This document shows, piece after piece, positions 244 to 10,289 of a DNA stretch of 10,289 nt. Each line of letters begins with the position of its first letter. The stretch's first letter is position 1. The notes below the pieces were generated by a model. The model did not search any database. It had not been told where the DNA came from and was given only the letters and a program-made list of their open reading frames with translations. The position numbers and the translations under genes are program-made. Source of the DNA: an uncultured archaeon (lineage in GTDB: Archaea; Asgardarchaeota; Lokiarchaeia; Sigyniarchaeales; SOKP01). The DNA lies in the NCBI GenBank assembly GCA_964447495.1, contig CAYUTF010000103.1, positions 1 to 10,289 of the forward strand. Reading direction: 5' to 3'.

Positions 244-284
244 AATTCGATAGTAATGCTCAAATTAGAACTATCGTATTTTTT
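244..284. terminator. Hairpin between convergent stop codons, followed by a T-run; possible terminator
   Basis: CGATAGT (248-254) pairs with ACTATCG (270-276), extendable by AAT/ATT after one mismatch; T-run at 279-284. Lies between the DUF99 stop and the GTPase stop. Confidence 0.35.
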
Positions 285-756
285 AATAAGTGGCAATTTC
301 GTATTCCAAAATCTCTTTCATCCTTTCCCTAAGCTCCGGGCGTATTGCCGACATACCGTAGGTTTTTAAGCCCCCTAACTTCTGTTGCACAACTCGTGCG
401 GGTATGGCTCCAGGTAGGTCTTGTTTATTTGCAATTGCAATTATCTTAGTGCCCAAAGTTCGTTCAAAACGATCGTATAATTGCTTGGTTTTATTGATGT
501 TCTCCTCTGTAGAGTCACAAACGATTACGGCTAAACCAGCACCCCTTAAAAAATCTTTCCACATAAATTTAAACCTTTTTTGGCCACCTAAGTCCCAGAT
601 CGAACACTTTTTCCCATTTAGTAAGGAATCCTCAACTTCCAGGCCAACTGTAGGTACTCGCTCTTCAGGTACATCTCTCCCCTGAAGCAGTGATAAAAGT
701 GAGGTTTTTCCAACTCCCCCTTCTCCAATAAGACATATCTTTTGTTTTGTTGTTAA
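283..756 (-). CDS. Arf-like small GTPase (Ras superfamily), ~157 aa; start codon uncertain
   Basis: Manual translation upstream of the ORF-track Met at 564, same frame: LTTKQKICLIGEGGVGKTS (G1), RVPTVG (G2), IWDLGGQKRFKFMW (Arf-type G3/switch II), then ANKQDLP (G4) and MSA (G5). The frame is open up to TGA at 768-766. Confidence 0.9.
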   Translation of the reverse strand, partial: LTTKQKICLIGEGGVGKTSLLSLLQGRDVPEERVPTVGLEVEDSLLNGKKCSIWDLGGQKRFKFMWKDFLRGAGLAVIVCDSTEENINKTKQLYDRFERTLGTKIIAIANKQDLPGAIPARVVQQKLGGLKTYGMSAIRPELRERMKEILEYEIATY

Positions 757-1726: not shown

Positions 1727-3025
1727 TTACTCGGTGACAATATCTTTTACTATTCCCACACACGCCGTTCTTCCCATATCCCGCACAGCAAATCTGCCCA
1801 TTTCAGGAATCACTTCATACTTTTCAATACAAAGCTTCTTAATGGGTTGTAATTTCACGATCGCAACTTCGTTTCGCTTTAAGAATTTAGGCGAATCTTC
1901 TATGACAGCACCCGTCTTTTGGTCAAGTTTTTTGGTTAATTCAATGAACTTGGCGGCAACTTGAGCAGTATGAGTATGAATTACGGGAGTATAACCTTGG
2001 GCAATAGCGGTCGGATGCCAGATGACAATTATTTGACCCGTCCAGTTGCCAGTTGGGGTAACTACAGTAGGTACATTACTAGGATGCCCCATACAGTCTC
2101 CACGTCCAACATCCTTCATTTCGATACCACGAATGCTAAAACCAATGTTATCGCCTGGTTCTGCTTGCGGTATTTCTTCGTGATGCATTTCGATGCTTCG
2201 AATTTCACCTTGAAATCCGGTCGGCATGATAATAATCTTATCACCTTTCTTTAAGATTCCAGTCTCGACTCTTCCAACAGGGACTACGCCAGTACCTTTA
2301 ATTTTATAAGCATCTTGAATAGGTACTCTTAAAGGTTTATCCGTTGGTTTAGGGGGAATTATAAATTCGTCAATTGCATCAATTAAAGTAGGACCGTCAT
2401 ACCATGGCATTTTATCACTTTTTTCAACTAAATTTTCTCCAGTCATTCCGCTGGTCGGCACAAATTTAATGTTCTTTACAGGATAACCAATTTGTTTTAA
2501 TAAGGCTGAAACAGCTTCTTTACATTCGTTGTATCTCTCTTTGGAATAATCATAATTATCAGCTTTATTAATGGCGACAACTAATTGTTTTACACCGAGG
2601 GTTTGGGCTAAGTAGGCATGTTCCCTTGTTTGTCCATTCGCAGCAATACCGACTTCCATTTCTCCTTTTTTACCAGAAACGACTAAGATTGCAGCGTCAG
2701 CTTGGGATGCACCAGTAATCATGTTCTTTACGAAGTCAGCATGTCCCGGAGCATCAATGATCGTGAAGTATTTTGTTTTGGTTTCAAATTTTCTGAATGC
2801 TAAATCAATGGTAATTCCACGTTGTCGTTCTTCTTTGAGCTTATCAAATACATATGCGTATGACCATGAGGGTCTGTCATATTCTTTAGCGATTTTTTCT
2901 AATTCTCTAGCTTCACGGTCACTCACAGCGCCAGTTTTGATGAGTAAGGCACCCATCATAGTTGACTTACCGTGGTCTATATGACCGATTATCACTAGAT
3001 TCAAATGAGGTTTTTCAGTAGGCAT
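1727..3025 (-). CDS. tuf: Translation elongation factor 1-alpha (aEF1A)
   Basis: 432 aa with GHIDHGKST, ERQRGITID, DAPGHADFVKNMITGASQAD, NKAD, GTGVVPVGRVETG, PGDNIGF and MGRFAVRDMG. Confidence 0.99.
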   Translation of the reverse strand: MPTEKPHLNLVIIGHIDHGKSTMMGALLIKTGAVSDREARELEKIAKEYDRPSWSYAYVFDKLKEERQRGITIDLAFRKFETKTKYFTIIDAPGHADFVKNMITGASQADAAILVVSGKKGEMEVGIAANGQTREHAYLAQTLGVKQLVVAINKADNYDYSKERYNECKEAVSALLKQIGYPVKNIKFVPTSGMTGENLVEKSDKMPWYDGPTLIDAIDEFIIPPKPTDKPLRVPIQDAYKIKGTGVVPVGRVETGILKKGDKIIIMPTGFQGEIRSIEMHHEEIPQAEPGDNIGFSIRGIEMKDVGRGDCMGHPSNVPTVVTPTGNWTGQIIVIWHPTAIAQGYTPVIHTHTAQVAAKFIELTKKLDQKTGAVIEDSPKFLKRNEVAIVKLQPIKKLCIEKYEVIPEMGRFAVRDMGRTACVGIVKDIVTE

Positions 3026-3185
3026 AATTCATCAATTTCCTCAATTTATTATTTTATATTAATATATTTTCAATTGTTTCTATATTTAGATTAAATGATA
3101 ACTACCTTAATGATGTCCAATATATATTTTTTTCTATAAAAAGTCAGTATTAATTAGATTATACTCTCTTTCCATTGTATGAAAA

Positions 3186-3471
3186 TTACTGCAGATTCCA
3201 ATTTATCATCTCGTTAGGGTCAATTTCTAATTTAAGAACAGAATTCAAATAATAATCTAATTTCTTGATATTAGGATTGAATCCTAACTCTACATAAAAG
3301 GGTCTTCCTTTTTTGTACCCAACTATTTTATTTCTAAAATCGTGATAATAAATAGAGGCTGGGAACTGTTTATCGTTAGGGGTTCTTACGAGAACAAACA
3401 CTTCAAATAGAAGATTAAATTTTTAATTTTTCATTGGATTTTTCATAGAAATCAGACTCTGAATTTACCAT
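3186..3471 (-). pseudogene. Small hypothetical ORF (3186-3401), possibly the 3' part of a frameshifted ~94-aa gene starting at ATG 3471
   Basis: 71-aa GTG-started ORF with protein-like composition. An upstream ORF MVNSESDFYEKSNEKLKI* (ATG 3471) would join it if one A were removed from the A5 run at 3420-3424. Confidence 0.3.
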
Positions 3472-3512
3472 TTGGGAAATTAATGTTGATGAAAAAATAA
3501 TGCTGTTTTAAA

Positions 3513-3532
3513 AAAATCCATCTATGGATTTT
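3513..3532. promoter_or_regulatory. Palindrome AAAATCCAT-ct-ATGGATTTT, candidate transcription-factor site
   Basis: Perfect 9-bp arms with a 2-nt spacer in the AT-rich divergent region upstream of aIF2alpha. Confidence 0.35.
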
Positions 3533-3760
3533 GTAGAGATTTCTCATTAATGAAATGTTATTAATGTTCATCATTATGACCTAGTTGAGGCCATTTTTTT
3601 CTATGTTAGAAAAGGTTATTTAAGTATTTTTTTCAAAAAATGTTTAAAATCATTAAAAAAAATAATTATAAGACTTACAAATCATAAAGATAAAAAAAAA
3701 GGGTACATTACTTTATGATTATATAGTTCAATATAAATTTATAAAAAAACTAGATGAAAT

Positions 3761-4585
3761 ATGGTAAAAAGTAGAACGCCATTTCCGAAAGAAGGAGAGT
3801 TCGTTATCGGTCGAGTTGTGGATATTGAGCAGCAATACATCTATATTGATTTATTAGATTATAAGGGTTTACAAACAGAAGAATATGCTCGAGGGATGAT
3901 TCATATTAGTGAGATTTCAAGCCGATGGATAAAGAATATACGAAATTTTGCGAGAGTTGGACAAAGGATTGTAGTAAGAGTATTAAGAGTCGATCAAACT
4001 AAAGGCCATGTTGATTTATCGTTACGAAGGGTTAATTCTGCGCAAAAGGATAATCGTATGAAGGAATGGAAATATGCGGTTAAATATGAAAATCTTTTGC
4101 AGTTTTTTACGGAGGAAGAAGGAATTAATATCAATTTAGATCAAGCGTATGAGCTTATTGGATGGCCTATTTTGGAAAAGTTTGACTCATACCAAGAAAC
4201 AATTGAAGCCTTGAAAGAATATGGAGAGGATTTGCTTAATGATTTGGGGACTTTATCCGAACAACAAATAAAAGCATTTACAAAAGTTGTAAATGAGAAT
4301 GTTGAGATATCCACTGTTAATATCATAGGGAAGCTAAAATTGATGAATATTGATGGCGATGGCGTTGATAAAATTAAGGATACTCTAATTGAAGCAAAAA
4401 AAGTAATTGAGAAACCGAAAGAGACACGTAAGATAACAATTTCTTATCTTGGAGCTCCTTTTTATCGAATAGAGGTCATATCTAAAGATTATTTAGATGC
4501 TGAAAATATTCTCTCTGACTCGTTAGAAATAATTGAAAGAAAATCAAAACAATATAACAATACTATTGAATTTATTCGAGATTAA
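3761..4585 (+). CDS. eif2a: Translation initiation factor 2 subunit alpha (aIF2alpha)
   Basis: N-terminal S1 domain (FPKEGEFVIGRV; GMIHISEISSRWIKNIR; KGHVDLSLRRV), C-terminal YLGAPFYRI motif, 274 aa, followed by nop10. Confidence 0.97.
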   Translation: MVKSRTPFPKEGEFVIGRVVDIEQQYIYIDLLDYKGLQTEEYARGMIHISEISSRWIKNIRNFARVGQRIVVRVLRVDQTKGHVDLSLRRVNSAQKDNRMKEWKYAVKYENLLQFFTEEEGININLDQAYELIGWPILEKFDSYQETIEALKEYGEDLLNDLGTLSEQQIKAFTKVVNENVEISTVNIIGKLKLMNIDGDGVDKIKDTLIEAKKVIEKPKETRKITISYLGAPFYRIEVISKDYLDAENILSDSLEIIERKSKQYNNTIEFIRD

Positions 4586-4602
4586 TTTTGTAGGTCCTGG
4601 TT

Positions 4603-4794
4603 ATGACAAAATATCTCCAGAAATGTAAAGAATGCGGAAAATACGGGCTAGCAAACCCCGAGTCTAAATGTAAGTATTGTGGGGGACAATTAATTAATCC
4701 GCAACCTCCAAAATTTTCAACCACAGACAAGTATGGAGATTATCGTTTAATTTATTTTAAGGAAGAGTTTAAAAAGAGATTTGATAAAGATTAA
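4603..4794 (+). CDS. nop10: H/ACA RNP protein Nop10
   Basis: Zn ribbon CKECG...CKYCGG, then 'PQPPKFSTTDKYGDYR' matching Nop10 P.PPKFSPEDKYG.YR; canonical position after aIF2alpha. Confidence 0.93.
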   Translation: MTKYLQKCKECGKYGLANPESKCKYCGGQLINPQPPKFSTTDKYGDYRLIYFKEEFKKRFDKD

Positions 4795-5486
4795 GATAAA
4801 TCTACTTTTTCCGCATATTTTTCATTAATTAAAATTATCGCATTTTTATATGGCATACTCGCAACGTCATTTTTGTTGAAAGGGCCATAATTTTTCAGAT
4901 CTAAGCCCACTAGGGGAGGGGTATTTTTTATAAACCGTAGTATAGTATAGTTATAGCCCGTATCTTGTTCAAATTCTACAGATTCTTCAATATCTCCTTC
5001 GAATTCCTTGATATCATTTTCACTTTCACTTTTTTGAATCTCTTCCACATTTTCAACTATTAACTCTTTTTCAGAAATAGAAGGTGAAGCTTCTATGGGA
5101 GGCTCTTCGCTTTCAAAGTCTTCTAAGAGAGAAAGGGCTTTTATCTTATCATAACCCTTAATTGTGCTTACTAAGTTCTGATAGAGTAATTTCTCAGGCT
5201 CAAGAATGTCATTTAAATTAATTTCTTGTAAAGCAAGCGCCGCGTTCATTACTTTAATCTTCCTAATTTTCAGAAGGTCTTCAAATAAATATTCAAAATG
5301 GTCCTTGTAGGTTTCTATGAGTTCAATTTTAATTTTATCTTTATCTTCAATTTCAGTTGCCTTGATTGTATTCATACAATTCTTATAAGAATTAAAATCT
5401 TCTTGCAAAAATTGAGTTAACTCTGTTTGGTCAAATTCAGCTAGCCAATGTTGAAACAGGCGATCATAATCCTTTTTTAAATTCAT
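4791..5486 (-). CDS. GINS complex subunit Gins15 (Gins51), A-domain/acidic linker/B-domain
   Basis: Helical A-domain with 'LLKIRKIKVM' and 'ILEPEKLLY'; acidic linker; C-terminal B-domain 'ILRFIKNTPPLVGLDLKNYGPFNKNDVASMPYKNAIILI'. Located after priS. Confidence 0.9.
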   Translation of the reverse strand: MNLKKDYDRLFQHWLAEFDQTELTQFLQEDFNSYKNCMNTIKATEIEDKDKIKIELIETYKDHFEYLFEDLLKIRKIKVMNAALALQEINLNDILEPEKLLYQNLVSTIKGYDKIKALSLLEDFESEEPPIEASPSISEKELIVENVEEIQKSESENDIKEFEGDIEESVEFEQDTGYNYTILRFIKNTPPLVGLDLKNYGPFNKNDVASMPYKNAIILINEKYAEKVDLS

Positions 5487-5559
5487 AAAATTCGAATAAT
5501 ATTGATTGGTACTTATTAAACATGTAAATTCGAAAATAAATATTAGCCAGAAAAATATG

Positions 5560-6837
5560 CTAATACATTGATATAGGCTTTGCTACTTCCTTACATAATA
5601 AATAGATAGCAATATGCTTTGGGACTTTTATTTTTTCTCCTTTATTATATGGTCCATAATGAATACCTTTGATTTTTGTTGCTGGTACAAATTCTTCAGT
5701 AATCTCTAAATTTATATCAATACCTTTTTGCTGAAAGACAATAGGGTCTTTTGATTTGTCAGGCTCGTCTAAAGGATTAAAGTCTTCTAACTCTTCAATC
5801 AAAAGTTCTTGTGCTTTAAAACCAGTTTTCCCATGAAGTGATCCAGGATATCTAATTAACCTATGAACATCTACAGATACAGGCTCATCAATATGTGCGC
5901 CTACTCTTTTAGCGATACCTGTTAAAAACAATTTCCATTTATTTATATCGAACCCTTCTAATGACCAATCATTAATTTCACTATTCTTAAACCTATCTAA
6001 AAAAATATTCTTTTGATTTAAGAAACTCGAGATTTGATTTTTTTTAAAACCTAAATCCATTAAAAAATGCTGGAGCTCTAAATCGGATTGATTCAATAAT
6101 GATTCAATCTCATCGGTTATTTTCTTAGCCCATCCAATATTTTCCCTTGATAATCCATAAATGATACCACTTCTTGTTCTTAATCCTAAAATTTCAAAAT
6201 TTAAATTTTCACCAGTCAAATAGTCAACTATTTCTCTTCTAGCATCACTTGAAAGGTTTCTTAAATTGTCATCTTCGACTTTTAAATGATAACCGCGGTG
6301 TCCTGAAAAAGCGATCATCACCGATTTTTCATTTATTCCGAAATCGGGAATTAAAAAATTGTATAAGAGTTTTAAGATTTCTTCTTTTGCAATATTTAAG
6401 CATTTTTCACATATCCAGCTCACATTTTTTATTTTTAAACTTCCACAATCTGGACATTTGGGAGGCATTCCTTTCCCGCTTTTATAACAACTTTTACAAT
6501 ACCAACTATCATGATCGTCTTTACAGGGAGTATAGAAATGATCCACATCGATATCAATAATTAAATCACATCCTTCATACTCTTTTTTTTCCATATTTGG
6601 GATTTCTGGATGGGCATAAAGTGACCCACTCGAATAAACATGTTTAGGACCACTGTTGATGAGATAGTCATTAAGATTTTTTTTTTTCTCAAATCCCATA
6701 TGTCGAAGCATAATTGGTTTATCCCAGGAGAGGAACGCAAATTCTCTTTTTGTAAAGAAACTCACTTCGGGTAGATTTATCGCATTCTTTTTATAATAAT
6801 CCTTAAATGTTCTTATTAGAAATTTGACTGGACTCAT
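5560..6837 (-). CDS. priS: DNA primase small catalytic subunit PriS; likely start at ATG 6837 (MSPVKFLIRTFKDYY), 425 aa
   Basis: AEP motifs REFAF, PKHVYSS, LIIDIDVD, FSGHRGYHL and IDEPVSVDVHRLIRYPGSLHGKTG. The ORF-track start at 6978 lies deep inside priL. Confidence 0.96.
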   Translation of the reverse strand: MSPVKFLIRTFKDYYKKNAINLPEVSFFTKREFAFLSWDKPIMLRHMGFEKKKNLNDYLINSGPKHVYSSGSLYAHPEIPNMEKKEYEGCDLIIDIDVDHFYTPCKDDHDSWYCKSCYKSGKGMPPKCPDCGSLKIKNVSWICEKCLNIAKEEILKLLYNFLIPDFGINEKSVMIAFSGHRGYHLKVEDDNLRNLSSDARREIVDYLTGENLNFEILGLRTRSGIIYGLSRENIGWAKKITDEIESLLNQSDLELQHFLMDLGFKKNQISSFLNQKNIFLDRFKNSEINDWSLEGFDINKWKLFLTGIAKRVGAHIDEPVSVDVHRLIRYPGSLHGKTGFKAQELLIEELEDFNPLDEPDKSKDPIVFQQKGIDINLEITEEFVPATKIKGIHYGPYNKGEKIKVPKHIAIYLLCKEVAKPISMY

Positions 6838-8011
6838 TATTATCAATTTCTTCTTTTTGTTTTTTCTCAATTCTTGATTTCTTGAACTGGTGATACTGGA
6901 CATAAAAAAGAGGATGTTTAAGAGATCTCTGCTCATTATATTGTTTTGACATATATCCATTGAGACACAATGGATCATTATATTTAGAAGCCATACATAA
7001 ATTCAATGATTTTAAAGTCACGCAGGAATGGGGTGTATAACCCTTCTTTTTTGCAAATTCTACTTGATATTCTGTTTTTTTTCTATCAAAATCAGGTAAT
7101 CCTTTAAAAAGTTCTATAATACTTTCGTTTGGGAAATTTAAAGCATGCAAAAAGAAAACAAGAAATAACCGTTCGATATGTGGTAGATTTTGACCTTCCT
7201 CCGCTTTAGTTATAATTTCTTTAATGCACGGAGGGAATAAACTTTTGAAATCCTTACCTTCTTTGAACTTAATATCAATAGAATATTCAAAATCTTCCTT
7301 TTTCAATTCCCATTCGTTTAGAATATTGTCGTAAATACTCTTAAATTCCTCAAATTTGAAAAATTCCTGTCTTAATTTTTCCAATGCGATATTATCTCCA
7401 GCCTCGCCAATTATAAACTTGCGTCGCACATATTCCTGCAATAAACGCTTGAGTTCTCTCGCTTCAAGATATATATACCCATTTACCAAAGCTTTATGGC
7501 ATAATTTCCTATATTCATCTCTCAAATAAATGGAGAGCTTTAAGTAATCTTGAAATTGAATGGAAAATCTCGTTTTTAAAATTTCTTTTTGCCCTTTATC
7601 AAATACTTCTTTAAACTTGAATTCATCGCTGTATTTTGTATTTAACTTTAAATCTTTACAAATATCATCAAGATTTGCATCTTCATGATCATTAATTAAT
7701 TCAGCATAGGTTTGTTTTGAATATATGTTAGCAATTCTATTCGCAATTCGTTTATCATCAATAATATAAAGTAAAATCTTAATAAACACATATAGATATA
7801 CATTTAATTCATCAGGTGAATAATCATTAATCTCTTCCAAATTGTCGAAGGCAGATCTAAATAAATTAAGAATTCGGGGTTCATATTCACTCAATTGAAA
7901 TTTTGAAGTTAATTTTTTGAAGAATTCGACGGGGTTTGATAAATCCGAATAGAATTCCTCCAATGATGGTAACCATGGGTAATGGAATAATAAATCGGAT
8001 GATCTATTCAA
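6803..8011 (-). CDS. priL: DNA primase large regulatory subunit PriL with C-terminal Fe-S domain
   Basis: N-terminal YPWL; FPPCI, NLPHIERLFLVFFL, PDFDRKKTEYQVE, YTPHSC..LKSLNLC...C and KHPL. TTG start; overlaps priS by 35 nt. Confidence 0.95.
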   Translation of the reverse strand: MNRSSDLLFHYPWLPSLEEFYSDLSNPVEFFKKLTSKFQLSEYEPRILNLFRSAFDNLEEINDYSPDELNVYLYVFIKILLYIIDDKRIANRIANIYSKQTYAELINDHEDANLDDICKDLKLNTKYSDEFKFKEVFDKGQKEILKTRFSIQFQDYLKLSIYLRDEYRKLCHKALVNGYIYLEARELKRLLQEYVRRKFIIGEAGDNIALEKLRQEFFKFEEFKSIYDNILNEWELKKEDFEYSIDIKFKEGKDFKSLFPPCIKEIITKAEEGQNLPHIERLFLVFFLHALNFPNESIIELFKGLPDFDRKKTEYQVEFAKKKGYTPHSCVTLKSLNLCMASKYNDPLCLNGYMSKQYNEQRSLKHPLFYVQYHQFKKSRIEKKQKEEIDNNESSQISNKNI

Positions 8012-8113
8012 AGTAAGTTAATCTCCTTTTTAAAAACTCGATTGATTATATGAATTAAAAATATAGTATTATTATATTTAAAGAGTAAATAGAATTATTA
8101 TTAATTTGAGATG

Positions 8114-8139
8114 TAACTACGACGAATTAATGAAAAAAT
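8114..8139 (+). repeat. Left arm of an inverted repeat flanking the MarR/Fe-S cassette
   Basis: TAACTACGACGAA (8114-8126) is the exact reverse complement of 10145-10157; 23/26 identity over 8114-8139 vs 10132-10157. Confidence 0.8.
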
Positions 8140-8314
8140 TTATCTTTGAAATTTCGATGTTCAATGTATTCTCTGGCAATCTAAAATTTTTATACATTAA
8201 TTAAATTAAAAAATGATTGTGAAATAAATGAAAAAAAGTTTTCTCTTGAGATTATTAAATGAAAAATAATCCCAGAATAAGATAAAATAATAAGAAAAAT
8301 TACGATATTATATC

Positions 8315-8767
8315 TTAAAACATTTTATGTCTCTCTTCAAAGCTGGATTTAATTGCATTGAATCTTTCTAAAACCTTAAAAAAAACTTTTATTTGCTCAG
8401 GTTTAAACTCATGTTCCATCATTTTCACCCCCATTAGACGCCTTTGAACAAATTTTTGATATAAATCATATCCTTTATTTGTTAGCTTTAATTTAACAAC
8501 ACGACGATCTTTACTATCACTTACTCGCTTAACGAGCCCTAAATCTACTAATTTATCGATCCTTCTAGTAGCGGCGCTTGGAATTAATTTTAAAAACTCT
8601 ATAATATCAGACATCGAGCATTGGGGATGTTTCCCTATATAATTAATAAGGAATATTCCTGTGCTTATTTTTTTTCCATCGTATTCAAGAGCCTCTATAC
8701 CTTGAGTAAATTGTTCTATAAATGATGTAAAAATTTCTATATATTGCTCTTCTTGAGTATCCATCAT
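8315..8767 (-). CDS. MarR family transcriptional regulator
   Basis: 150 aa wHTH with 'SMSDIIEFLKLIPSAATRRIDKLVDLGLVKRVSDSKDRRVVKLKLTNKG' (D.R...V.LT.KG signature). Confidence 0.93.
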   Translation of the reverse strand: MMDTQEEQYIEIFTSFIEQFTQGIEALEYDGKKISTGIFLINYIGKHPQCSMSDIIEFLKLIPSAATRRIDKLVDLGLVKRVSDSKDRRVVKLKLTNKGYDLYQKFVQRRLMGVKMMEHEFKPEQIKVFFKVLERFNAIKSSFEERHKMF

Positions 8768-8862
8768 GAATAATAAGAAACTAATAAATATAATGTTTTT
8801 GCAATTTCAGAATAATTGCGTAAATGCAAATAGTTAAATATCAAAATTAATTAATTGCAACT
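8768..8862. promoter_or_regulatory. Divergent promoter region with putative MarR operator TTGC-N6-GCAA (8816-8829) and two TATA-like boxes
   Basis: TTGCGTAAATGCAA dyad; extra TTGCAA at 8799-8804 and 8855-8860; TTAAATA at 8834-8840 (+) and TTATAT at 8793-8788 (-), each ~21-29 nt before the respective ATG. Confidence 0.55.
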
Positions 8863-9948
8863 ATGCCAAAAAAGCAGACTACATTCGTTTTTCAAGGAAA
8901 AGATGAATTAGAGTTTCTGGACTTTTGTAAAACTTATCCAGATCAAGTAATCCCTTGCCATGAATCTTCCGTAACTGAGGGTTTTGAATATTTATTTAGT
9001 CTTGGTTTCAAGGTTTCCAAAAAGGAGAGAATTAAACAATTTTCAGAGGAAGGAAAAATATTCTCGTTCTTAAAATTCATGTTTAAGCTAATTTTTAAGT
9101 TGACGAGATGGAGAAAGCGAACATTCCGCGATTTAAAACCATATTATAACGAGATTAGATCCTCCACATTTATACAGAATCGTCAAGAAAATCCATCTAT
9201 AAATACACAATTATGGAAGGAACTTAACGAATATGCCTTGGAAAGATGGAATATTACCAAAATTGGATTTACGGAATTACCTACTCAACTTATATTTAAA
9301 AATAAATTTGTTCTTTTTAGATACGCTCTTGTGTTTATGCAAGAGATGGATAAGGAAAAGATTGATGAAGCACCTCGGCCCCAAGCGGGTATGGAGGTGA
9401 TGCGGGTCTATGCTACCTTAGGAGAAGCGGTTGGTCAAATCGCTCGATGGTTAAGAAAAAGAGAGGTAAGATGTCAAGCTAATCATCCTCTTGGTGGGTT
9501 AGTTAATACCCCTCCACTTACAGGTAAGGCAGGTATGGGATGGCAAGGGAGGCATGGATTGCTCATAACTCCAGAATTTGGACCACGCCAACGATTAGCA
9601 CCGATTTTTATTGAAGATCAAATATTTGAACTAACTGATAGCTTAGAACATACTTGGATTGAAAAACAATGTGATTCTTGTGGAATTTGTCAAAAAAATT
9701 GTCCTCCAGGTGCAATTCATGGAAAAAGAATAATCAATATAGATAATATTAATGGTATCGGGGCAACACGCATTAATATCGACAGAGAAAAATGTTTTCC
9801 TCAATTTTTAAAGACTGCGGGTTGTAGTATTTGCATAAAAGTTTGTCCTTTCTCATCTGGACCTAATGCATATGAGAAATTTAAACATCATATTTTAATG
9901 GAAAGTCAAAAAAATGAGAAAAAATCGCAAAATACGATAAAAAAATGA
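8863..9948 (+). CDS. Reductive dehalogenase / epoxyqueuosine reductase (RdhA/QueG) superfamily protein with a cobalamin-binding domain and two [4Fe-4S] motifs
   Basis: 'PPLTGKAGMGWQGRHGLLITPEFGPRQRL' matches the RdhA-type AG.G..GR.G..I.PEFGPR.R segment; CX2CX2CX3CP (CDSCGICQKNCP) and CX9CX2CX3CP (CFPQFLKTAGCSICIKVCP). No Tat signal seen. Confidence 0.82.
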   Translation: MPKKQTTFVFQGKDELEFLDFCKTYPDQVIPCHESSVTEGFEYLFSLGFKVSKKERIKQFSEEGKIFSFLKFMFKLIFKLTRWRKRTFRDLKPYYNEIRSSTFIQNRQENPSINTQLWKELNEYALERWNITKIGFTELPTQLIFKNKFVLFRYALVFMQEMDKEKIDEAPRPQAGMEVMRVYATLGEAVGQIARWLRKREVRCQANHPLGGLVNTPPLTGKAGMGWQGRHGLLITPEFGPRQRLAPIFIEDQIFELTDSLEHTWIEKQCDSCGICQKNCPPGAIHGKRIINIDNINGIGATRINIDREKCFPQFLKTAGCSICIKVCPFSSGPNAYEKFKHHILMESQKNEKKSQNTIKK

Positions 9949-10131
9949 GAAAAAGTTTTTTTCTTTTAATAAAATCATTAATTGTTAGAGAATTATATAA
10001 ATTTTAATTCGATTCCGTGATATCTCGAGGAATTTAAATTTATTAGGAAAAAAGTTGAGGAAATCCAAAAGACATTGAATACAGATGATTTAATAAATTA
10101 AATTCTTTAAAGTTTTTTTCCTTATTTTATC

Positions 10132-10157
10132 ATATTTTAATTATTTCGTCGTAGTTA
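10132..10157 (-). repeat. Right arm of the inverted repeat flanking the MarR/Fe-S cassette
   Basis: TTCGTCGTAGTTA at 10145-10157, 13 nt downstream of the PCNA stop codon; reverse complement of 8114-8126. Confidence 0.8.
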
Positions 10158-10170
10158 GAATTTAATAACG

Positions 10171-10289
10171 CTAAAATTCATCCATATCATCGTTTTCATC
10201 GAATTCGGCTTCTTCGACACGAGGGGCTAAGAAGTAACTCAATTCTCCTCCTTCAAGGATGCCAAAAATCATTTTCAGAGGGTGGTCGG
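10171..10289 (-). CDS. pcn: PCNA (DNA polymerase sliding clamp), 3' end; not in the ORF track
   Basis: Manual translation DHPLKMIFGILEGGELSYFLAPRVEEAEFDENDDMDEF* (TAG at 10173-10171) carries the PCNA C-terminal 'PL.....G.L.Y.LAPR.E' signature; context with priL/priS/gins fits. Confidence 0.92.
   Translation of the reverse strand, partial: DHPLKMIFGILEGGELSYFLAPRVEEAEFDENDDMDEF

Follow-up and report, generated by a model that had tools for sequence, protein, structure and literature searches.

Inverted repeats between pcn and priL of an Asgard archaeon very probably mark a non-autonomous Tn7-family transposon

In the genome of an uncultured archaeon of the Lokiarchaeia, the genes for PCNA (pcn) and for the large subunit of DNA primase (priL) are separated by a segment of approximately 2 kb, which is bounded by a short inverted repeat. 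The window considered here is the whole stretch of 10,289 nucleotides (nt) that was analysed (contig CAYUTF010000103.1 of assembly GCA_964447495.1, which it appears to span completely). The sequence TAACTACGACGAA is found at positions 8114-8126 of the plus strand and its exact reverse complement at 10145-10157, and when the two arms are extended inward, 23 of 26 positions match (inverted-repeat pair I5, 88%). The right arm lies 13 nt from the pcn stop codon, which is read on the minus strand at 10171-10173, and the left arm begins 102 nt from the start of priL at 8011. Between the arms, open reading frames (ORFs) and Pfam domains define only two genes: a marR gene (8315-8767, minus strand) and a gene for an iron-sulfur (Fe-S) protein (8863-9948, plus strand). 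A preliminary description of the window, made from its letters alone, had reported the same repeat pair with its inward extension, distances of 13 and about 100 nt to the neighbouring genes, and the enclosure of just two accessory genes; all of this was recovered exactly or within a few nucleotides. The interpretation proposed here is that the segment 8112-10159 very probably represents a non-autonomous derivative of a Tn7-family transposon of Asgard (Promethearchaeota) genomes, of which the two arms are the end tips.

The window as a whole contains 19 exact 13-mer inverted matches, corresponding to approximately 12 separate pairs. The repeat between pcn and priL is judged to be real because of the comparison with relatives, and not because of statistics within the window. 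An alignment of 29 PriL sequences was used to scan species-representative genomes, which yielded 54 loci, including up to 10 kb to either side; the source genome of the window is not among them. In these 936,244 bases, the exact 13-mer occurs 2 times, where 0.03 occurrences are expected, and 7 times when one mismatch is allowed, where 1.4 are expected. Six of the seven latter matches mark the border, next to pcn or priL, of an enlarged gap between the two genes: one border in L002 and L042, and both in L032 and L038. The seventh is in L023, within a gene region that is unrelated; a single such match is expected by chance.

The gene order of the window, followed by tblastn with its proteins, is kept in all 54 loci, and the PCNA C-terminus is found upstream of priL in 45 of them. 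In 36 of these 45 loci the spacer is short and empty (100-249 nt; L031, with a run of N, is among them), which provides the unoccupied pcn-priL site that the preliminary description had suggested looking for in relatives. One of the two nearest relatives of the window, L001, has such an empty site. None of the 36 short spacers contains the motif within two mismatches. An enlarged gap of 0.5-8.3 kb is present in 9 loci. For the remaining 9 loci, an upstream pcn was not seen; among them are L026 and L046, in which priL stands at the contig edge, and L042, which starts inside an insert. The same ends (TGTAACTACGAYGAA...) surround inserts of 332 bp to 8.1 kb at pcn-priL in six or seven loci, always in one orientation.

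The insert of L032 connects these ends to a transposase, as the preliminary description had envisaged for copies of the repeat elsewhere. It is 8118 bp long (1731-9848), begins with TGTAAC, ends with GTTACA, and carries the genes tnsAB, tniB and tniQ in this order. The first of them (6981-9605, minus strand) encodes a protein of 874 amino acids (aa), which comprises a TnsA-like N-terminal endonuclease, a helix-turn-helix, an rve integrase core and Mu-transposase_C. The TnsA part is recognised by Tn7_TnsA-like_N at residues 53-136 (9.3e-08, above the Pfam cutoff) and by the NCBIfam model TnsA_like (1.5e-08, below its cutoff). The predicted TnsB-type DDE transposase part is recognised by Mu-transpos_C (5.5e-06) and weakly by rve (0.006). 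Among solved chains, the 874-aa protein matches PseTnsAB (5.7e-48), the TnsB of Tn6677 (4.7e-43) and the TnsB of Tn7 (1.1e-13). The remaining two genes encode a TniB/TnsC ATPase of 300 aa (PF05621, 1.7e-44) and a TniQ protein of 636 aa (PF06527, 2.3e-22, plus DUF6262), which supply the TnsC/TniB and TniQ/TnsD components of a Tn7-type system. This TniQ has only 7 close clusters (47-100% identity, its own included) among the 8000 scored candidates, those with the most words in common, of a 5.8-billion-protein collection.

The borders of the L032 insert are defined by its empty-site sister, L040. Identical bases stand at 224 of 236 positions in the alignment of one flank and at 238 of 253 in that of the other. 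The pentanucleotide TTTTC, of which L040 has a single copy, borders the L032 insert on either side, 21 nt past the pcn stop codon. The 5-bp duplication, the TGT...ACA tips and the set of transposition genes are hallmarks of a Tn7-family transposon.

When the tips of the window element are aligned with the ends of L002, L032, L038 and L042, the true start of the repeat is located two bases outward of the arms originally noted. The whole element thus extends from 8112 to 10159, 2048 bp from tip to tip, with TGTAAC on the priL side and TCTAAC on the pcn side, and the bases homologous to these borders are the ones that delimit the L032 insert against the empty L040. The priL-side end module (8112-8303, plus strand, tip TGTAACTACGACGAA) holds the left arm and is detected by an nhmmer profile with E = 1.2e-44; it corresponds to the tnsAB-proximal end of L032. 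Its identity to that end is 87% over 192 nt, rising to 90% across the first 135 aligned columns, while identity to L042 is 88% over 157 nt and to L038 90% over 129 nt. In a six-way alignment of the ends, conserved blocks continue out to approximately column 130. The pcn-side end module (9939-10159, minus strand, tip TCTAACTACGACGAA, nhmmer E = 7.1e-11) holds the right arm, and is 89% identical to L032 over 47 nt and 76% identical over 221 nt to the ends-only element in L038.

Both modules contain copies of a 19-nt unit. The terminal unit on the priL side, ACGAYGAAATAATGAAAAA at 8119-8137 (plus strand), differs at 2 positions from the unit of which the L002 end has three tandem copies, and a second, weaker unit with 4 mismatches is located on the same strand at 8279-8297. 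On the pcn side, two adjacent units occupy 10134-10152 and 10115-10133 (minus strand, 3 mismatches each), and a further copy is found at 9934-9952. The tandem layout of the pcn side recurs in L032 and L038, with two copies, and in L002, with three. Five of the eight copies in the window fall within the element, which makes up 20% of the window. By analogy with Tn7, these units are presumably the binding sites of TnsB. Since the end modules are homologous to transposon ends, the AT-rich stretches between the arms and the genes, which had been described as spacers, are themselves transposon end modules. Inside the element, Pfam recognises only MarR and Fer4 domains. The window copy therefore has the homologous ends and the repeated subterminal units of the Tn7 family, and because it encodes no transposition genes of its own, it is classified as a non-autonomous derivative.

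The other inserts at the same site form a series of reduced elements with different contents, and inverted pairs of ends around varying cargo, which the preliminary description had proposed to search for, are found in L002, L036 and L038. The L002 insert (1369 bp) contains a gene for a hypothetical protein of 180 aa and the first 32 codons of tnsAB, which lie 243 nt from the tip, a spacing identical to that in L032. Its pcn-side end has three tandem end units of about 20 nt and the tnsAB relic is at the other end (8541-8611 and 9571-9666). In L036, an insert of 1152 bp with degenerate tips carries a gene for a DUF4256 protein. The 332-bp insert of L038 (9507-9838) consists of the end modules only, with no ORF of at least 60 aa, and is a miniature of the same transposon family at the same site, resembling a miniature inverted-repeat transposable element. 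Only the priL-side end was found in L009, next to an ABC-permease-like gene, and in L042, where it accompanies a gene for a TPR protein and a relic of TniQ residues 548-612 (1062-1256). L047, with hydrolase and AAA genes, has a weak pcn-side end (profile E = 0.41) and no priL-side end, and is counted as an element only weakly. The tns relics of L002 and L042 indicate that tns genes decay in place.

The arrangement in L009 (3114-9904) is more complex. After a complete pcn gene (3114-3929) come two LRR genes, of which one has a TIR domain, and then a second pcn 3′ fragment (7330-7506), which is 54% identical to PCNA residues 195-253. Downstream of this fragment are the ABC-permease-like gene and the priL-side transposon end, with no pcn-side end. 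Because the 18-nt host spacer CATTTATTTAGAAATTTT follows both the pcn fragment and the transposon tip, the structure suggests an insertion, compound or rearranged, by which the attachment region became duplicated.

In three further enlarged gaps, those of L012, L027 and L043, no recognisable ends were found by motif searches with up to 4 mismatches or by nhmmer profiles. L012 (8709-10000) contains a paralogue of the window's Fe-S gene, 44% identical to it, about 9 nt past the pcn stop codon and in the opposite orientation. L027 (8909-10000) and L043 (8919-10000) carry a gene for a DeoC-family aldolase in the spacer. The pcn-priL spacer may be a general hotspot, or these three inserts may be fully decayed elements.

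The insertions are specific in site and orientation. Across the 936 kb of related loci and the window, the nhmmer profiles of both ends match only in the pcn-priL spacer, beside the conserved pcn gene. The priL-side end is on one strand in all seven elements in which it is present, and every pcn-side end that was seen is turned towards pcn. In a quick-search tree of PriL and PriS with 55 rows, every element-bearing row has an empty-site sister. The tree requires 8 changes for 8 element rows (the weak L047 included), which makes the elements no more clustered than shuffled labels. The similarity of the ends also contradicts the relatedness of the hosts. The priL-side end of the window is 88-90% identical to those of L032, L038 and L042, whose PriL proteins are 51-52% identical to that of the window. 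With the end of L002, the nearest host (78% aa identity in PriL and PriS), its identity is only 78%. The L002 end is, in turn, closest to that of L009 (88%). By eye, the flanking spacers of distant hosts share only short conserved blocks. The tree pattern and the end similarity, together with the fresh insertion in L032, argue for repeated targeted insertion rather than one ancient event.

A course of events can be proposed in which autonomous relatives insert in one direction into the spacer past the pcn stop codon, upstream of the priL promoter region. TniQ would direct TnsAB and TniB to this spacer, most likely through the conserved 3′ end of pcn. Cut-and-paste insertion would duplicate 5 bp and leave both replication genes intact. 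Afterwards, the tns genes would be lost, or copies lacking them would be moved in trans, and in either case the ends would be left around the cargo. The window copy keeps about 190-220 nt of each end, with everything between them as cargo. It would have arrived by transposition, either as a tns-less element moved in trans or as a full element which lost its tns genes in place.

A number of observations weigh against this interpretation. Only one autonomous copy, that of L032, was found among the 54 loci, and the patchy distribution alone cannot separate gains from losses. The inserts of L012, L027 and L043, in which no ends were recognised, mean that not every gene at this spacer can be credited to the transposon. 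The distance from the pcn stop codon to the tip is also variable, with 11 nt in the window, 10 in L002, 17 in L047, 18 in L038, 21 in L032 and 0 in L036; when L036 is left out, it is 10-11 nt in the host clade of the window and 17-21 nt in the other clade. In Tn7, the tns genes sit at the target-proximal end, and closely packed repeats are likewise located at that end. In L032 the tns genes occupy the end distal to pcn, opposite to the arrangement of canonical Tn7 at glmS, and the attachment determinant could therefore be either the 3′ end of pcn or the upstream region of priL. The analysis leans towards a TniQ that reads the pcn flank rather than the priL flank, because distances vary less on the pcn side than between the tip and priL (about 91-100 nt and about 137-152 nt), because conservation is high at the 3′ end of pcn, and because the pcn-side repeats are closely packed.

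Other points of the same kind concern the window copy itself and whether it is still able to move. The preliminary description had noted no transposase, no integrase and no clear target-site duplication, and none appeared: a tblastn search of the window with TnsAB, TniB and TniQ of L032 gave no tns relic (best E = 0.57), and with several placements of the tips no 5-bp duplication or other direct repeat was found around the element, whose flanks read TAAAT and TCTCA. A target duplication is absent at L002 and L038 as well. The pcn-side tip of the window, TCTAAC, has C at position 2, where TGT stands in L002, L032, L038 and, as far as its first three bases go, L047; judging from Tn7, such a change should impair cleavage. 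The missing duplication and the TCT tip fit an old or disabled copy, and because of these two features the window copy is taken, as a leaning, to be a fixed relic at present. A variant of the same reading, which differs from it only on present-day mobility, would see in the window a still-mobile mini-element that never carried tns genes here and that was placed, and can be moved, by TnsAB, TniB and TniQ from a copy elsewhere in the genome. It draws on the priL-side end, which keeps all conserved blocks along with its high identity to L032, and on the lack of tns relics, unlike in L002 and L042. It also draws on the 221 nt of the pcn-side module common to the window and L038, whose hosts have PriL proteins about 51% identical, as would be expected for a tns-less lineage spreading in trans. 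Given the altered tip and the absent duplication, present mobility is possible and rather unlikely.

Two explanations without a transposon were also weighed. The perfect 13-nt inverted sites, about 2 kb apart around a divergent gene pair, resemble a segment that is flipped by a site-specific recombinase, which the preliminary description had offered as an option. Neither the window nor the homologous inserts encode a recombinase, priL-side ends point towards priL in 7/7 elements with no inverted isomer found, and the ends share homology with those of a transposon that has Tn7-type genes; the option is rejected as highly improbable. The motif could otherwise be a regulatory, terminator or promoter element of the host, or a chance repeat, with the two genes having arrived by an unrelated route. 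The 13-nt repeat taken alone is within chance, with an equally informative exact inverted repeat in 131 of 300 dinucleotide shuffles, and its arms adjoin a gene end and a gene start. The homology, however, runs about 190-220 nt inward and not 13 nt, the motif is found together with inserts and with tns genes or relics of them, and Rfam finds nothing in the window. The dispersed regulatory motif considered in the preliminary description is missing from the 36 empty spacers and has elsewhere one chance-level match with a single mismatch, which leaves this explanation next to no credibility. The transposon reading corresponds to the first option of that description, a non-autonomous cargo element inserted between pcn and priL, which is borne out by the shared ends, the empty sites and the tns-bearing L032.

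The closest model for such insertion is Tn7 at attTn7, downstream of glmS in Escherichia coli. Tn7 inserts there in a single orientation, from a few to approximately 20 nt past the stop codon of an essential gene, and breaks no gene. The pcn-docked elements are similar in that they stand in a single orientation just past a conserved gene, with intact neighbours. Elements of the L032 type differ from Tn7 in their archaeal host, the fusion of TnsA and TnsB, the lack of TnsE, the use of pcn instead of glmS, and the position of the tns genes far from pcn; the window copy differs further by lacking tns genes altogether. Laboratory mini-Tn7 and natural tns-less derivatives and islands of Tn7 at attTn7 in bacteria consist of two ends around cargo, are moved only in trans, and persist at the site. 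The window element likewise consists of two Tn7-type ends around cargo with no transposition genes. Unlike mini-Tn7, the elements described here are natural archaeal ones at several stages of decay: ends only (L038), ends with cargo (the window), and ends with tns relics (L002 and L042).

Tn7-family elements of archaea have recently been described by Thesier et al. (2025; bioRxiv 10.1101/2025.07.27.667033), whose main text reports them from 24 assemblies, nine of them Asgard. According to that text, fused tnsAB is found with tnsC and tniQ, the ends begin with tgt, insertion is site- and orientation-specific and produces 5-bp duplications, and attachment occurs at nrdD, tRNA genes, a DNA methylase gene and a radical-SAM gene; one Heimdall element was reconstituted in E. 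coli, where target immunity was seen. The elements at pcn-priL share with them the Asgard hosts, fused tnsAB, TniQ, TGT tips and, in L032, the 5-bp duplication, and differ in their attachment beside pcn, which is not among the sites named in the main text. The words PCNA, pcn, primase, non-autonomous, remnant and miniature do not occur in the main text of the preprint, and one of its 16 elements may be of the type described here. The presence of the Tn7 family in Asgard archaea was thus already known, and no account was found in that main text of an attachment site at pcn-priL or of a graded series of decayed, tns-less derivatives. A further case may be the gene cluster of the Asgard Argonaute HrAgo2 (PMC11217426, 2024), whose listed members include TniQ, a transposition protein and PCNA. 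The listing is not accompanied by an interpretation as a pcn-targeted Tn7-like element; the arrangement is as expected for another pcn-docked transposon, which in this case may have a defence gene as cargo. A literature search of full texts on Tn7-like elements in Asgard archaea or Lokiarchaea, and on archaeal TniQ with PCNA, gave nothing further that was relevant.

The cargo of the window element consists of the two divergent genes. The first (8315-8767, minus strand) encodes a winged-helix regulator of 150 aa of the MarR family, recognised by Pfam MarR (1.4e-10) and MarR_2 (3.1e-10). The score for PF01047, 41.3 bits against a cutoff of 24.6, confirms the earlier MarR assignment; all NCBIfam matches of the protein are under their family cutoffs. 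The second gene (8863-9948, plus strand) encodes a protein of 361 aa of the RdhA/QueG superfamily with two 4Fe-4S clusters, for which Pfam Fer4_16 matches residues 269-330. The 95 nt between them (8768-8862, strand not assigned) contain the inverted repeats I1-I4, and three TTGCAA-type palindromic sites are located at 8798-8830 and 8852-8863. From the usual behaviour of the family, these palindromes are presumed to be MarR operators, and the regulator probably represses the divergent Fe-S oxidoreductase gene.

The preliminary description had called the second gene RdhA-like, after reductive dehalogenases (RDHs). At the superfamily level this holds: the best solved relatives in the PDB are PceA (7.2e-13) and then the epoxyqueuosine reductase QueG (4.3e-07), matched over residues 154-336. 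It does not hold at the level of the RDH family. The protein scores 67.2 bits (E = 2.1e-18) against the NCBIfam model TIGR02486, the cutoff of which is 160.35, with QueG weaker still (E = 1.1e-12); its N-terminus, MPKKQTTF, has no RR motif and no twin-arginine leader, and no rdhB-like ORF is present in the element. In organohalide-respiring bacteria such as Dehalococcoides, rdhA is paired with MarR-type regulators and located in variable or mobile genome regions. The window resembles these loci in having a MarR-family regulator beside an RdhA-superfamily gene within a mobile region. It differs from them by the score under the RDH cutoff, the missing leader and rdhB, and membership in a large Asgard paralogue family. 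The protein has 794 homologues, the best of them 77% identical, and the named ones are Asgard. The GC content of the cargo, 0.30-0.36, is like that of the host genes, with no foreign composition found, and the Fe-S gene resembles a captured gene of native Asgard origin. Among the inserts with Tn7-type ends, only that of the window carries an RdhA-superfamily gene, and this single case gives no evidence for the family as a favoured cargo.

The host genes on both sides belong to a conserved informational neighbourhood. The 3′ end of pcn (10171-10289, minus strand), cut off where the contig ends, encodes 38 C-terminal aa, which match the PCNA genes upstream of priL described above; the element tip lies 11 nt past its stop codon, and the full-length PCNA of L032 has both the PCNA_N and the PCNA_C domain. 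On the other side, priL (6803-8011, minus strand; Pfam DNA_primase_lrg, 3e-19) is followed by priS (DNA_primase_S, 2.5e-17) and gins51 (Gins51_C, 2.9e-14), and the remainder of the window continues with nop10, eIF2-alpha and EF-1-alpha. The homologues of PriL bear Promethearchaeota and other Asgard names. The Rfam scan of the window gave 0 hits, and 0 tRNA genes were found in it.

Between priL and the element, a retained host spacer (8012-8111, minus strand) was recognised by an alignment by eye to the spacers of L001 and L002. It contains the conserved TTTACTCTT block, which is found in nearly all loci and remains on the priL side of the insert. Across hosts, non-coding blocks upstream of priL show strong conservation. 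In most short spacers upstream of priL, TTTACTCTTAA or a close variant is present (e.g., L011 9845-10000 and L040 9833-9985). A block of approximately 50 nt, TTAATAGATTnATTAAAAnTATCAGTAAAyTAATTTACTCTTAATCTATTAAAG, is common by eye to about 15 loci. This conserved sequence is probably the promoter or leader of priL, and TniQ might possibly read it as a target instead of the 3′ end of pcn.

Three further observations concern the rest of the window. The longest ORF of priS (5560-6978) overlaps priL by 176 nt, and in several loci the match to PriS starts at approximately residue 48; the real start of priS is probably located further downstream than that of the longest ORF. An ORF of 93 aa at 283-564 (minus strand) has a weak match to Arf and small GTPases (E = 0.0017). 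Of all inverted repeats in the window, the highest information content belongs to a 44-nt pair at 1580-1623 and 1785-1828, 80% complementary with an exact core of 15 nt. One of its arms is in the 3′ coding end of EF-1-alpha and the antisense copy lies approximately 100 nt past the EF-1-alpha stop codon; no such repeat is found in the corresponding regions of L001, L002 and L004.

A more far-reaching idea, which is doubtful at present, is that the Lokiarchaeial pcn-priL spacer is a dedicated dock of Tn7-type elements, read by TniQ at the 3′ end of pcn. The tns-less relics would be kept for target immunity through their TnsB-binding ends, shielding the replication cluster, and as a reusable dock which exchanges cargo such as the MarR and RdhA-like pair. 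If this were true, the dock and the ends would offer a natural safe harbour for Asgard genetic tools.

With the transposon reading, an anonymous repeat becomes a defined mobile element: its borders are exact, and its family, an autonomous relative and the attachment site can be named. A Tn7-type lineage repeatedly uses the spacer between the core replication genes pcn and priL in Asgard archaea, with graded derivatives and varied cargo, and the archaeal Tn7 family, described only recently, thereby gains a candidate attachment site as well as natural mini-elements. For a group with almost no genetic tools, the ends, TniQ and the target constitute testable material for site-specific integration. 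The element of the window also represents one concrete route by which accessory genes, here a regulator and an enzyme of the RdhA superfamily, are placed in Asgard genomes.

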